DNA from: a virus
Lineage: Duplodnaviria; Heunggongvirae; Uroviricota; Caudoviricetes
Strand: one strand, 5' to 3'
Virus record (IMG/VR): IMGVR_UViG_2541047881_000004
Coordinates: 1-44,376 of that record
DNA length: 44,376 nucleotides
Shown: positions 23,011-29,364 of the stretch, one piece after another
Numbering within the stretch: position 1 is the stretch's first letter
How the letters are laid out: every line of letters begins with the position of its first letter
The notes under the pieces: generated by a model
What the model was told of the DNA's origin: nothing
Seen by the model: only the letters and a program-made list of their open reading frames with translations
The model's database searches: none
Position numbers and translations under genes: made by a program

Positions 23011-26691
<3,681 letters not shown>

Positions 26692-26717
<26 letters not shown>

Positions 26718-27237
26718 TCAGCAACCCCGGTATCAGTTCATCCAGCGCGGCTGCTTTGTTCATGGCTTTGATGATATCCCGTTTCAGGAAATCAACATGT
26801 CGGTTTTCCAGTTCCGGAAAACGCCGCTGCACCGACAGGGGGATCCCGTCGAGAATACTGGCAATTTCACCTGCGATCCGCGACAGCACGAAAGTACAGA
26901 ATGCGGTTTCCACCACTTCAGCGGAGTCTCTGGCATTTTTCAGCTCCTGTGCGTCGGCCTGCGCACGCGTAAGTCGATGGCGTTCGTACTCAATAGTCCC
27001 TGGCTGGAGATCTGTCTCGCTGGCCTGCCGCAGTTCTTCAACTTCCCGGCGCAGCTTTTCGTTCTCAATTTCAGCATCCCTTTCGGCATACCATTTTATG
27101 GCGGCGGCAGAGTCATAAAGCACCTCATTACCCTTGCCACCGCCTCGCAGAACGGGCATTCCCTGCTCCTGCCAGTTCTGAATGGTACGGATACTCGCAC
27201 CGAAAATGTCAGCCAGCTGCTTTTTGTTGACTTCCAT
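26692..27237 (-). CDS. Nu1: Terminase small subunit Nu1
   Basis: 181 aa, MEVNKKQLADIFGASIRTIQNWQEQGMPVLRGGGKGNE..., lambda Nu1-like. Confidence 0.95.
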
Positions 27238-27299
27238 TGTTCATTCCACGGACAAAAACAGAGAAAGGAAACGACAGAGGCCAAAAAGCCCGTTTTCAG

Positions 27300-27460
27300 C
27301 ACCTGTCGTTTCCTTTCTTTTCAGGGGGTGTTTTAAATAAAAACATTAAGTTACGGCGAAGAAGAACGGAAACGCCTTAAACCGGAAAATTTTCATAAAT
27401 AGCGAAAACCCGCGCGCCTTCCGCCCCGTAACCTGTCGGATCGCCGGAAAGGACCCGCAA
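27300..27460 (-). other. cos packaging site; cosN 12-nt cohesive-end segment at 27415-27426
   Basis: Minus strand reads ...GATCCGACAGGTTACG GGGCGGAAGGCG CGCGGGTTTTCGCTATTTATGAAAATTTTCCGG; flanks match lambda as recalled, the cohesive-end 12-mer differs in its last six bases; lies about 190 nt upstream of Nu1 as in lambda. Confidence 0.8.
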
Positions 27461-27625
27461 AATGATAATAATTATCATCTGCATGTCACAACGTGCATCT
27501 ACGCCATCAAACCACGTCAAATAATCAATTATGACGCAGGTATCATATTAATTGATCTGCATCAACTTAACGTAAAAACAACTTCAGACAATACAAATCA
27601 GCGACACTGAATACGGGACAACCTC

Positions 27626-27859
27626 ATGTCAACGAAGAACAGAACCCGCAGAACAACAACCCGCAACATCCGCTTTCCTAACCAAATGATTGAACAAATT
27701 AACATCGCTCTTGATCAAAAAGGGTCCGGGAATTTCTCAGCCTGGGTCATTGAAGCCTGCCGCCGGAGACTGTGCTCAGAAAAAAGAGTTTCTCCTGAAG
27801 CAAACAAAGAAAAGAGTGACATTACTGAATTGCTCAGAAAACAGATCAGACCAGATTGA
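27626..27859 (+). CDS. Ribbon-helix-helix protein, homologue of the lambda cos-proximal hypothetical gene (recalled as orf-79)
   Basis: 77 aa, MSTKNRTRRTTTRNIRFPNQMIEQINIALDQKGSGNFSAWVIEACRRRL...; near-identical to the lambda right-end ORF as recalled. Confidence 0.8.
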   Translation: MSTKNRTRRTTTRNIRFPNQMIEQINIALDQKGSGNFSAWVIEACRRRLCSEKRVSPEANKEKSDITELLRKQIRPD

Positions 27860-27915
27860 AGCAATTTAGATAATCGTGCAGACTACGCCCCTCATATCAC
27901 ATGGAAGGTACTACA

Positions 27916-28326
27916 ATGGCTCAGGTTGCCATTTTTAAACAAATATTCGATAAAGTGCGAAATAATTTAAACTATCACTGGTTTTATTCTGAACTAAAAC
28001 GTCACAATGTCTCACATTACATTTACTATTTAGCCACAGAGAATATTCATCTTGTTCTTGAAAACGATAATACGGTTTTAATAAAAGGACAGGGTAAGGT
28101 TGTAAATGTAAGATTTTCAAAAAATAAATGCCTTATAGAAGCCACCTTAAAAGGATTCAAATCAGGAGAGTTATCATTTTACGAATACAGGAAAAATCTT
28201 GCTACAGCAGGGGTTTTCAGATGGATTACAAATATCCACGAAAACAAAAGGTATTACTATACCTTTGATAATTCATTACTCTTTACTGAGAACATTCAGA
28301 ACACTACACAAATATTTCCGCACTAA
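27916..28326 (+). CDS. Hypothetical protein of the YbcV family (DUF name recalled as DUF1398), homologue of the lambda cos-proximal gene (recalled as orf-78)
   Basis: 136 aa from ATG 27916 (GGAAGG RBS); AT-rich; lambda-like. Confidence 0.7.
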
Positions 28327-28612
28327 ATCATAACGTCCGGTTTCTTCCGTGCCAGAACCGGACTCGCTGGCATGATGAAATATGTGTACCCGGTAACCCC
28401 GGTGTGCATCGTTTTTGATTATTCCCACACACTCGCGCAGAAGGAGTTCCCCGTCGGGCTACGGTCTCTGTTAATACGGGAATACGGCGACGATACAGCG
28501 CATGATGTGTCAGGCTTGAATACCTTTATCCTTTAAAAGGGATATCAGTTAAGTTATCCCGTGTAGGGTATAAGCCATTATCAAGCCCACCCGTAGATAG
28601 GCTTTGTAATGG

Positions 28613-28870
28613 CTACTTCGCTTTTGCTTCCGCTCGCTTACGCCGGCGCTCTTCTTTCCTCTCGGCTTTTGCCATGTCCATGAATGCCTGCATGATCGAG
28701 TTCCGCATCATGTAGCTAACAAAGTGATGATTGACACAGCCGTTGAGGCGCAGCTGCTCGCCAAACTCGTCCACCGAGGCCAATGCTTCCATCATGCCCT
28801 TCTCGCCTTTCATGAACTCTGAGAAGTCGCGCCCCGCTCTGGAGGCGCATTCAATAACATGATCACTCAT
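28613..28870 (-). CDS. Hypothetical protein (85 aa, basic C-terminal tail)
   Basis: ORF coupled to the upstream KilA-N gene (stop/start overlap); no family recognised. Confidence 0.55.
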   Translation of the reverse strand: MSDHVIECASRAGRDFSEFMKGEKGMMEALASVDEFGEQLRLNGCVNHHFVSYMMRNSIMQAFMDMAKAERKEERRRKRAEAKAK

Positions 28871-29364
28871 CCCGGAAGCCCGGGGATCGTAATCTGCAGC
28901 TGGTTAGCCAGGGAGTTAATCTCAGCGACCAACACTGGCTTCGTATAGCGCCATGCTGCCAGCCCTTGTCCGCAGAAGCTCGCCATGTCTTTCTTCTGGT
29001 CAAACTCATGACATTTCATGTTGAGCTGCGCACTTAAGCTGTTGCGATGCTGAAGTTCTCCGGTGAAGTAGTCATCGAGGACTTTATAGGCCGCGTACTT
29101 GAACCCGGGGTTTAACCAAGCCGCATAATCGTAAGCAACAAACTTCCCGCCATATGTTCCACCGTGTACACCGCGCTCAGTAAAAACCACAGATTCGTGG
29201 TTTTTCTCCAGCTCGGCTAAGAACTCTTTGGTCTGCTTGTTTCGCAGGTAGTGGTAAGGCGATTCAGATTCACTTTTACCACTGGCTTTCCACATATCAG
29301 TGAGGCAGATCATGCCATCTTCACCGATACGAATTGGTTGATTGAAGAGGGTTAATGATTTCAT
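28867..29364 (-). CDS. KilA-N domain protein
   Basis: 165 aa, MKSLTLFNQPIRIGEDGMICLTDMWKASGK... resembles the KilA-N / Bro-N DNA-binding domain; occupies the slot that bor holds in lambda but on the opposite strand. Confidence 0.55.
   Translation of the reverse strand: MKSLTLFNQPIRIGEDGMICLTDMWKASGKSESESPYHYLRNKQTKEFLAELEKNHESVVFTERGVHGGTYGGKFVAYDYAAWLNPGFKYAAYKVLDDYFTGELQHRNSLSAQLNMKCHEFDQKKDMASFCGQGLAAWRYTKPVLVAEINSLANQLQITIPGLPG

Follow-up and report, generated by a model that had tools for sequence, protein, structure and literature searches.

The ynfO-ydfO-type right end of a lambdoid phage genome: two neighbouring genes as candidate separable modules

Genes and sites between cos and the lysis region

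Two small genes lie one after the other on the + strand of the window, i.e. the whole stretch of 44,376 nucleotides of phage DNA that was analysed (Table 1). Both belong to families that are already catalogued and named, ORF1 to YlcI/YnfO (DUF3950) and ORF2 to DUF1398. The - strand carries Nu1, terminase A, Rz, R, S and two further late-strand ORFs, and the ORF strands together with the mapping of cosN confirm the position that had been read from the sequence alone, between cos and the lysis genes and antisense to the late operon. The AT-richness noticed for ORF2 also holds (31.4% GC; the window as a whole has 51.6%, Nu1 and A have 53-54%), as does the resemblance of both genes to uncharacterised right-end ORFs of lambda, where p78 is 76% identical to ORF2 and a homologue of ORF1 is present as well. 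The length of 77 aa given to ORF1 was right, whereas the combination of a 41-nt gap with a 136-aa ORF2 was not: the gap of 41 nt belongs to a 141-aa product of an alternative upstream ATG at 27901 (27901..28326, +) and a gap of 56 nt to the 136-aa form, and therefore two starts had been mixed. The 136-aa form begins at the second ATG (27916), with a Shine-Dalgarno-like GGAAGG sequence 7 nt upstream, and has the start that RefSeq gives for the identical protein. Selection identifies both ORFs as real coding genes, with pN/pS values of about 0.07-0.3 for codons 1-50 of ORF1 and dN/dS values of about 0.2-0.4 for DUF1398; these ratios indicate that both genes are under purifying selection.

Table 1 Features of the two genes and their surroundings, in window coordinates
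Feature	Position	Strand	Basis
Nu1, small terminase subunit, divergent neighbour of ORF1	26692..27237	-	Pfam Phage_Nu1, E 5.5e-101
cosN, 12-nt cohesive-end segment, placed by homology (CGCCTTCCGCCC; lambda AGGTCGCCGCCC)	27415..27426 (about 27415-27427)		alignment with lambda right end, Qin, DLP12
Fur box, putative, between cos and ORF1	27458..27476	.	16/19 matches to consensus
Sigma-70 promoter-like site, GTGACA-16-TATCAT, toward cos/Nu1	27462..27489	-	consensus match only, 10/12
ORF1, YlcI/YnfO-family gene (DUF3950), 77 aa, pI 10.6	27626..27859	+	ORF list, Pfam, NCBIfam
ORF1 core, codons 1-50: Arg/Thr-rich N-terminal arm and putative ribbon-helix-helix	27626..27775	+	conservation, model
ORF1 tail, codons 51-77: variable, AT-rich, C-terminal; left edge of cargo module	27776..27859	+	GC, homology break
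PdhR-box-like site, putative, AACAGATCAGACCAGAT, 60 nt upstream of DUF1398 start	27840..27856	.	comparison with Qin site
ORF2, DUF1398 (YbcV/YdfO-like) gene, 136 aa	27916..28326	+	Pfam, 2HH8, AF2 model
Conserved stem-loop TCCGGTT..AACCGGA, 10 nt after DUF1398 stop codon	28336..28362	+	comparison with homologues
Terminator-like hairpin followed by CGTTTTTGATT, low confidence	28384..28417	+	fold of 28318-28420, z = -2.2

The putative Fur box is unique in the window, was matched 0 times in shuffled sequences and is overlapped by the sigma-70-like site; a consensus sigma-70 promoter on the + strand was found upstream of neither gene. Homologous Fur sites upstream of nohA and nohB are reported to be among the strongest predicted ones, and Fur causes a gel shift of the nohA site. 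The PdhR-box-like site, also unique in the window at 0.02 chance matches expected, differs by one mismatch from the Qin ynfO/ydfO site, which was reported by genomic SELEX. PdhR sites occur at both K-12 loci and ybcV mRNA is down 10-fold in a pdhR mutant. From the match to the Qin site we infer that PdhR may bind here as well. Downstream, the conserved stem-loop recurs behind ydfO, ybcV and lambda p78, and its pairing is preserved in Qin by a compensatory change from T-A to C-G; it is not followed by a T-run on the + strand and may either be a weak terminator or serve to form or stabilise the 3' end. The second hairpin was not called by a consensus scan and is conserved neither in Qin nor in lambda. 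Rfam matches were restricted to spurious miRNA models on an inverted repeat (27256-27323) and were discarded.

The two proteins

ORF1 is assigned to its family by Pfam (DUF3950, E 4.9e-21, 74.8 bits at a cut-off of 25) and by the NCBIfam model YlcI_YnfO_N (NF041551, 35.7 bits at a cut-off of 30), and is 96% identical to YnfO of the Qin prophage of K-12. The lambda homologue, 94.5% identical over residues 1-55 and starting at lambda position 48303 on the complement, is unannotated in J02459. The core (pI of residues 1-50, 11.5) is almost invariant across the family and the tails differ. In K-12, ylcI is transcribed and convergent with ybcW, and YlcI/YnfO is among the proteins listed for capsid-forming PICIs with a terminase of their own. 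Matches to YlcI in Kitasatospora, Cohnella, Pedobacter and similar taxa, which would imply a broad taxonomic range, were rejected as they are on contigs of ~3.5 kb or ~48.5 kb that represent lambda control DNA.

The sequence-only reading had called ORF1 a ribbon-helix-helix (RHH) protein. Its small size and RHH-like pattern agree with this: in the monomer model residues 19-32 and 34-55 are helical and G33 lies in the turn between them, the best Foldseek matches of the model are all RHH folds (TCP, ParD2, ArtA, NikR), and hhalign places NIRFP..G33 on NLRWP..G30 of Arc, in the expected register. The statistical support is weak, however, with Foldseek E values of at least 2.3 and an hhalign probability of 2%. 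A significant sequence or structure match to the RHH superfamily was not found, no Pfam RHH family being matched at E values up to 10 and a PDB profile search returning nothing. The monomer model (pLDDT 65, with a low-confidence C-terminal helix) contains no beta-strand; the beta-sheet of RHH proteins forms in the dimer only. Like Arc and Mnt of P22, ORF1 is a small phage protein in which a basic N-terminal arm precedes two helices of corresponding length, and its N-I-R-F-P ... G-x-x-x-x-S motif is in register with N-L-R-W-P ... G-x-x-x-x-S of Arc, although the similarity to these proteins is not significant and a Pfam RHH match is lacking. Judging from the model and this register, ORF1 is probably a small protein of the RHH type.

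ORF2 matches the entire Pfam profile of DUF1398 (PF07166; positions 1-119 of 119, E 3.3e-43, 147 bits at a cut-off of 22). It is 76-78% identical to YdfO, YbcV and lambda p78, the structure of YdfO (PDB 2HH8) being recovered at E 1.4e-69, and its AF2 model (pLDDT 86) agrees with 2HH8 in Foldseek at E 7.7e-17, with TM scores of 0.84/0.90 and an rmsd of 1.7 Å. This structure is the sole PDB match of the model, and nothing significant was found in BFVD. The structure prediction left DUF1398 a fold orphan with no toxin-like neighbour, and the model suggests a soluble cytoplasmic protein of duplicated alpha-alpha-beta-beta-beta fold in which neither an enzyme-like nor a toxin-like signature is present. 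As the model is globular and the hydropathy over 19 residues peaks at 0.39, a location in the envelope or membrane was rejected, and since there is no hydrophobic segment the label 'envelope protein' is unsupported. The matches of ORF2 to HEPN_AbiA_CTD (15.8 bits, below the cut-off of 27) and to Csx23 in PADLOC (E 0.025, 12.6 bits, below threshold) were discarded. A published oxidative-stress resistance of YdfO was also set aside, since the cited paper names YfdK, YfdO and YfdS of CPS-53 and not YdfO, which points to a mis-citation of YfdO. Divergence between DUF1398 alleles centres on residues 57-92 (pN 0.25-0.29, as compared to 0.04-0.14 elsewhere), and pN/pS exceeds 1 nowhere along the gene. 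As to the homologues, lambda p78 was found to be non-essential by CRISPRi, ydfO is inducible, and the K-12 genes are transcribed from cryptic prophages.

A junction inside ylcI and the occurrence of each gene without the other

Terminase A, Nu1, cos and the ORF1 core are part of a block (24704-27788) that is 97.6% identical to lambda. The homology breaks at 27788, inside ORF1, and resumes at 82.5% from 27843. From ylcI codon ~51 the GC content drops, from 48.7% in the core to 35.7% in the tail (GC3 25%) and 31.4% in the DUF1398 gene. The ORF1 tail and ORF2 can be described as a cargo module of ~31-36% GC, and the anatomy fits a moron slot.

A survey of the YlcI core in 80 sampled IMG/VR phage loci showed it to be 100% identical in all of them and followed by nine tail variants of about three unrelated types. 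The 77-aa form with DUF1398 directly adjacent accounts for 38 loci, with one further 77-aa locus lacking DUF1398; another 22 are of the lambda type, in which ybcW lies on the opposite strand between ylcI and DUF1398, and a total of 19 lack DUF1398 within ~4 kb of YlcI. What follows the same core may be ybcW, DUF1398 and bor, or ybcW with small ORFs and a cold-shock gene (csp), or other small genes, or nothing. Upstream, a divergent Nu1 gene was present in every locus with upstream sequence, even where Nu1 was only 36-53% identical, and for lambda-like Nu1 its start is 388-389 nt from that of ylcI in loci with enough upstream sequence. In Stx-like phages without DUF1398, a YlcI variant of 77% identity and an HNH gene are divergently arranged. 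The core itself does not change with the terminase of the phage or with the cargo that follows. Cargo that varies between relatives at a fixed slot, with a composition different from that of the flanking genes and a lambda homologue that is non-essential, agrees with the moron arrangement that had been mentioned as one reading of the locus.

The distribution in bacterial genomes also separates the genes. DNA similar to the locus occurs in lambda and in 4864 of 5426 complete E. coli genomes; DUF1398-like DNA is present in 5376 complete genomes of this species as compared to 4184 for the ylcI core, and at least 1192 carry DUF1398 without a detectable ylcI core. Exact-protein look-ups yielded seven divergent DUF1398 loci (one between Q and the holin gene), all seven without a YlcI-like ORF in any frame, and DUF1398 homologues are found in ordinary chromosomal neighbourhoods. 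In lambda and DLP12, where both are present, ylcI and the DUF1398 gene are ~650 bp apart with ybcW in between. The description of the genes as a conserved but unstudied pair thus gives way to that of two independent modules that are often neighbours, each of which occurs without the other. Apparent DUF3950-DUF1398 fusions (P0014, P0010) that could have served as a 'Rosetta stone' were dismissed, as the junction RPD-W-SNL is a TGA stop codon translated as Trp by the gene caller.

These data bear directly on the toxin-antitoxin analogy drawn in the sequence-only reading. In a type II module of this kind DUF1398 would be the toxin, neutralised by the C-terminal tail of YnfO as an RHH antitoxin, and the complex of the two would autorepress the operon. 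The locus does resemble ParD-ParE, CcdA-CcdB and RelB-RelE in that a small putative RHH gene is closely followed by a gene for a ~15-kDa protein on a mobile element; gene order, sizes and spacing (77 aa, then 136 aa after 41-56 nt) are of this kind, the putative N-terminal RHH of ORF1 is followed by the low-confidence C-terminal helix, and weak matches include ParD2 among the structures and a HicB-like PHROG (E 0.007). However, searches with Pfam, PADLOC and Foldseek (against PDB and BFVD) gave no toxin family or fold for DUF1398, and linkage is not obligate, with YlcI lacking DUF1398 in 19 of the 80 loci and DUF1398 standing alone in at least the seven sampled loci and at least 1192 genomes. 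Nor do tail and partner co-vary: one identical YnfO tail of 28 aa is combined with DUF1398 alleles 100% and 75-76% identical to that of the window, i.e. 24% apart, and DUF1398 is also found behind another tail. The intervening ybcW breaks up the gene order in lambda and DLP12, and ybcV is under PdhR control together with ybcW. Furthermore, an ASKA clone over-expressing ybcV was sufficiently viable to receive a score in a phenotype screen, and YdfO alone, presumably over-produced on its own, gave the solution NMR structure 2HH8. A toxin-antitoxin pair is therefore considered extremely unlikely, and the data favour a small DNA-binding gene that stays in place with an exchangeable accessory gene behind it.

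A two-gene operon of another type, in which YnfO is a dedicated regulator with DUF1398 as its only target, would explain why all 77 informative viral loci with the DUF1398 allele of the window (those with enough upstream sequence) have YlcI upstream on the same strand. The two genes are still adjacent in a third arrangement with the other tail, and no independent consensus promoter was found for DUF1398. On the other hand, the YlcI core is identical whatever follows and is maintained where DUF1398 is absent, and with the mosaic junction inside ylcI the cargo arrives without its supposed regulator. In addition, ybcV of DLP12 has its own PdhR-dependent expression, and a PdhR-like box is retained here. 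Such an operon is considered unlikely.

Possible functions of the two modules

We consider it reasonably probable, though far from certain, that the locus is the ynfO-ydfO-type version of a lambdoid right-end accessory region, composed of two separable modules with a host-regulated, moron-like cargo. The first module would consist of the first ~50 YlcI/YnfO codons and the ~200 bp to cosN, move together with cosQ, the right side of cos, and be kept under strong purifying selection. Its product is most likely an Arc/Mnt-like RHH dimer, from which we infer that it could act as a small DNA-binding transcriptional (auto)regulator. The second module, which would begin inside the 3' end of ORF1 and include the 27-aa tail and the DUF1398 gene, has a low GC content and would have been acquired horizontally. 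By analogy with lambda p78, DUF1398 would be dispensable for lytic growth. Its transcription most probably takes place in the prophage, antisense to the silent late operon, and starts at a host-regulated promoter of its own with a PdhR-type box; with such expression it would be a lysogenic-conversion ('moron') gene like its lambda neighbour bor. Our best guess is thus a small (auto)regulator next to a non-essential accessory protein that is expressed in lysogens under host control.

The closest known arrangement is ynfO-ydfO (b4533-b1549) of Qin in K-12, with the same order and orientation: nohA/Nu1 (-), a cos remnant, ynfO (+, 77 aa) and, after a gap of 57 nt, ydfO (+, 136 aa). YnfO is 96% and YdfO 76-78% identical to the proteins of the window, and the PdhR box has the one mismatch mentioned above. 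The differences are in the DUF1398 allele, mostly at residues 57-92, and in the state of the element, Qin being a decayed prophage and the window an apparently intact lambdoid genome. Lambda (p78, annotated as 'putative envelope protein', and p79) and DLP12 (ylcI-ybcW-ybcV-borD) have the same cos-ylcI core and the same strands relative to the late operon, but three of their features are absent from the window: an insert of ~560 bp that holds ybcW on the other strand, a different YlcI tail of 15 aa, and a downstream bor gene. Morons such as lambda bor and lom, as reportedly defined by Hendrix and colleagues, offer a further comparison. Like these, the cargo is an extra low-GC gene at a fixed slot in only some relatives, antisense to or independent of the lytic operons, with homologues that are non-essential for plaque formation and transcribed from prophages. 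Unlike in morons, the left junction of the cargo is inside the preceding gene, and a promoter and terminator are predicted at most.

DUF1398, alone or with YlcI, might also protect the lysogen against other phages, through superinfection exclusion or defence. A variable lysogen-side cargo slot in a temperate phage, the deviant composition, the amino-acid divergence centred on residues 57-92 and the very wide distribution in E. coli are compatible with such a role. PADLOC, however, gave no significant match for DUF1398 and none at all for ORF1, a defence phenotype was not reported in the literature searched, pN/pS is never above 1, and the homologues in ordinary chromosomal neighbourhoods do not fit well either. 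An anti-phage function is thus quite unlikely.

Lambda and most sequenced E. coli carry both genes, which adjoin cos in lambda and in most E. coli prophages; they are named but uncharacterised, and lambda ylcI is missing from the reference annotation. Considering them as two independent modules instead of a toxin-antitoxin pair makes YlcI a candidate for a cos-side DNA-binding protein and DUF1398 a candidate for a host-regulated lysogen accessory protein. This is a tidying of the annotation of a model phage more than a discovery, and would be of wider interest only if the YlcI core has a role in packaging, insulation or early entry. For example, YlcI might bind beside cosQ or at the Fur-controlled promoter and modulate packaging or terminase expression, such as by silencing Nu1-A transcription in the prophage. 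It keeps a fixed distance to the packaging gene whatever the terminase type, the HNH-type module included, the ~200 bp between cos and ylcI are nearly identical in lambda, Qin, DLP12 and ev099, a predicted divergent Fur-box promoter is 150 bp away, and the PICIs in which YlcI/YnfO is listed have a terminase of their own. In the lambda-like cases, however, the conservation belongs to the larger 3.1-kb block of 97.6% identity, so that the spacer was largely rejected as a conserved DNA element. It is not conserved in the HNH-type context, and phylogenetic footprinting gave no repeat that survives in all contexts, which leaves no definable operator. Minimal cos fragments without ylcI are also packaged. 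A cos-linked role of YlcI is therefore distinctly improbable.

A last, very unlikely option is that the YlcI core, and not the pair, is what is conserved, and marks a right-end platform for 'first-in' or prophage-side expression, in which the RHH protein would gate the cargo slot or insulate the cos and terminase genes from the Fur-controlled promoter, with DUF1398 as one of several payloads in conflicts between phage and host or between phages. Lambda DNA enters the cell right end first, and ylcI, which reads inward from a position ~200 bp away from the right cohesive end, would thus be the first gene to enter.

Two catalogued genes between cos and the lysis cassette

The sequence is that of a lambdoid phage, in reverse reading direction. 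The positions and strands of ORF1 and ORF2, together with the low GC content of ORF2 (31%, against 52% for the window), confirm the observation of a sequence-only reading, which had placed an AT-rich gene and its partner on the strand opposite the late genes, between cos and lysis. Two ORFs are present as described, although the 41-nt spacing and the 136-aa product that were reported belong to different starts: 41 nt fits the start that gives 141 aa, whereas 136 aa fits a gap of 56 nt. This second ATG is preceded at 7 nt by a ribosome-binding sequence, GGAAGG, and is also the start in RefSeq.

ORF1 belongs to the YlcI/YnfO family (Pfam DUF3950, E 4.9e-21; NCBIfam model above cut-off) and is 96% identical to YnfO of the K-12 prophage Qin. 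ORF2 is a DUF1398 protein (E 3.3e-43), 76–78% identical to YdfO, YbcV of prophage DLP12 and lambda p78. The pair is real, was correctly recognised, and is already catalogued as ynfO/ylcI and ydfO/ybcV, with an NMR structure of YdfO (PDB 2HH8). The proposed likeness to lambda right-end ORFs also holds, as lambda carries both p78 and a YlcI homologue. The latter starts at 48303 on the complement strand (L006 2904..2740), is intact and identical to the 64-aa DLP12 copy, and is annotated neither in the reference record J02459 nor in HK629/HK630.

Of 5426 complete E. coli genomes, 4864 contain DNA resembling 27240–28620, as do 262 phage records. The pN/pS ratio of ORF1 codons 1–50 is 0.07–0.3 where pS is 0.3–0.7, and dN/dS of the DUF1398 gene is 0.2–0.4; judged from such sequence comparisons, both are genuine genes. 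Amino acid divergence among DUF1398 alleles lies mostly in codons 57–92, the central linker and helix 3 (pN 0.25–0.29, versus 0.04–0.14 elsewhere), and codons 1–30 of the window and DLP12 alleles differ with pN 0.11 at pS 0.00. Local diversifying selection or recombination may have produced this pattern.

DUF1398 is a very small family, which at 50% identity makes up 189 clusters in a set of 1.84 billion representative proteins. Many supposed "homologues" in databases come from unrelated taxa, among them Kitasatospora, Cohnella, Pedobacter and Pseudomonas (loci L186–L221 plus ENA proteins), and lie on contigs of about 3.5 or 48.5 kb whose start is the lambda right end. They appear to be contamination with lambda control DNA, with ORFs often frameshifted, and inflate family counts. 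The apparent DUF3950+DUF1398 fusions (proteins P0014 and P0010; one cluster has 761 members) are not real, since a gene caller translated the ynfO TGA stop as Trp.

Predicted structures and reported phenotypes

ORF1 was earlier called a ribbon-helix-helix (RHH) protein, a fold that is likely, as far as modelling goes. The protein is very basic, with pI 11.5 over residues 1–50, and the model has helices at 19–32 and 34–55 and a low-confidence one at 63–74. The top Foldseek matches are all RHH folds (TCP domain, ParD2, ArtA, NikR), none of them significant. With hhalign, NIRFP...G33 of ORF1 aligns onto NLRWP...G30 of Arc in the expected register at a probability of only 2%, and no Pfam RHH model matched.

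In its AF2 model (pLDDT 86), DUF1398 folds as a duplicated alpha-alpha-beta-beta-beta unit, for which 2HH8 is the sole significant PDB neighbour (TM 0.84/0.90); predicted viral structures gave no significant match. The protein has no hydrophobic segment, and a divergent alignment showed no conserved catalytic-looking residues. Defence-system models did not match DUF1398, and an anti-phage role is possible, but less likely than that of accessory cargo.

The literature searched assigns no function to either family. Lambda p78 was non-essential by CRISPRi, ydfO was strongly induced by ionic liquid, ybcV was up in a sabinene-tolerant strain, and a ybcV ASKA clone altered glycogen content. In K-12 RNA-seq, ylcI and ybcW transcripts overlap convergently, and YlcI/YnfO is among the genes listed for capsid-forming PICIs of Enterobacter. 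The often repeated claim that cells over-expressing YdfO are protected from oxidative stress is a mis-citation: PMC4077768 cites PMC3105296, which names YfdK, YfdO and YfdS of prophage CPS-53.

Constant core and exchangeable cargo

The best-supported interpretation is a two-module accessory region. The window matches lambda in a single unbroken block of 97.6% identity from terminase A via Nu1 and cos to 27788, about codon 54 of ORF1, where homology stops, to restart at 27843 at only 82.5%. The GC content drops at the same break: 48.7% in codons 1–50, 35.7% in the tail (codons 51–77) and 31.4% in DUF1398. Throughout the YlcI/YnfO family residues 1–50 are nearly invariant and the tails unrelated. 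Qin has exactly the window order, Nu1(-), cos, ynfO(+), ydfO(+), whereas in DLP12 and lambda, whose YlcI tails are unlike that of ORF1, the two genes are separated by ybcW on the other strand.

Among 80 IMG/VR loci selected by the YlcI core, Nu1 is divergent upstream of ylcI wherever upstream sequence is present, even at 36–53% Nu1 identity; with a lambda-like Nu1 the two starts are 388–389 nt apart. A cos-linked role for YlcI would suit this constancy and is possible, though less likely than regulation.

The cargo varies. The 77-aa ORF1 form occurs in 39 loci, with DUF1398 directly adjacent in 38 and absent from one, and the lambda type (ybcW, DUF1398, usually bor) in 22. Altogether 19 of the 80 lack DUF1398 within about 4 kb and have a ybcW variant, small ORFs, a cold-shock gene or others ahead of the lysis cassette. 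In Stx-like phages without DUF1398 (L092–L094), a 77% identical YlcI variant and an HNH endonuclease gene diverge from each other at a distance of 40 bp; a variant with a third tail type has DUF1398 downstream. Conversely, seven loci with divergent DUF1398 (25–44% identity) contain no YlcI-like ORF in any frame. They include ycgX beside bluR, genes in several ordinary surroundings on chromosomes, and one in a phage (L178, 1531–1923) that lies between the Q antiterminator and holin, the stx-type moron slot. In complete E. coli genomes, DUF1398-like DNA was found in 5376 and the ylcI core in 4184.

The two genes are thus frequent neighbours and no obligate pair, so that the idea of one conserved unit is not sustained, each being found without the other. 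A toxin-antitoxin pair, also suggested earlier, is superficially resembled in gene order and size; it is not supported, as three defining features examined are missing: DUF1398 matches no known toxin family or fold, linkage is not obligate, and tail and partner show no co-variation. A dedicated regulator–target operon is possible, but less likely than two modules. The suggested moron likeness fits the deviant GC content and the swapping of cargo behind a constant core. In the two-module interpretation, the YlcI core, anchored on the cosQ side of cos, would be a small DNA-binding (auto)regulator, and the AT-rich tail with DUF1398 would be moron-type cargo, dispensable for lytic growth, with host-controlled expression from the prophage. 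What remains novel is the invariant cos-side core rather than the gene pair.

Regulatory signals and neighbouring features

Features of the window around cos, ORF1 and ORF2
Feature	Position	Strand	Remarks
S, R, Rz, KilA-N/ORF11CD3 gene, 85-aa ORF, Nu1, terminase A		-	
cosN	~27415-27427		placed by aligning with lambda ends
Fur box	27458-27476		16/19 consensus positions matched
Candidate sigma-70-like promoter		-	directed towards cos and Nu1; overlaps Fur box (together 27458-27489)
ORF1	27626-27859	+	77 aa; between cos and lysis cassette
PdhR-box-like sequence	27840-27856		60 nt upstream of DUF1398 start; one base off Qin site
ORF2	27901-28326 or 27916-28326	+	141 aa, or 136 aa from second ATG; between cos and lysis cassette

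The Fur box corresponds to known sites upstream of nohA and nohB, the K-12 Nu1 counterparts; these sites are among the strongest predicted for Fur, and the one at nohA is shifted by Fur in gel assays. By analogy, iron may regulate the terminase genes in lambdoid prophages. The Qin PdhR site was identified by genomic SELEX, and in a pdhR mutant the mRNAs of ybcV and ybcW (DLP12) were down about 10-fold. A consensus promoter was not detected on the + strand. Directly 3' of the DUF1398 stop lies a conserved stem-loop that Qin, DLP12 and lambda also have; one change in its stem is compensatory.

An ORF of 54 aa at 28372–28536 (+), a hypothetical protein in the annotation of phage ev099, has no family match and overlaps non-coding DNA that is homologous to the lambda p78–bor spacer, and is therefore, by sequence, probably not a gene. 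Two late-strand genes at 28613–29364 (-), between Rz and cos, take the position of lambda bor: one encodes a KilA-N + ORF11CD3 protein of 165 aa that weakly matches PADLOC PDC-S22 (E 1.2e-8), the other an 85-aa protein (phrog_875).

Rfam gave no relevant match, only spurious miRNA-model matches at 27256–27323. These come from a perfect inverted repeat of 15 nt, GAAAGGAAACGACAG ... CTGTCGTTTCCTTTC, that lies in this stretch between cosN and the Nu1 start and probably represents the terminase-binding cosB repeats. The inferred 12-nt cohesive end (27415–27426) reads GGGCGGAAGGCG versus GGGCGGCGACCT in lambda, and several of the last six bases differ; on both the cosQ and the cosB side, the adjoining sequence is lambda-like.
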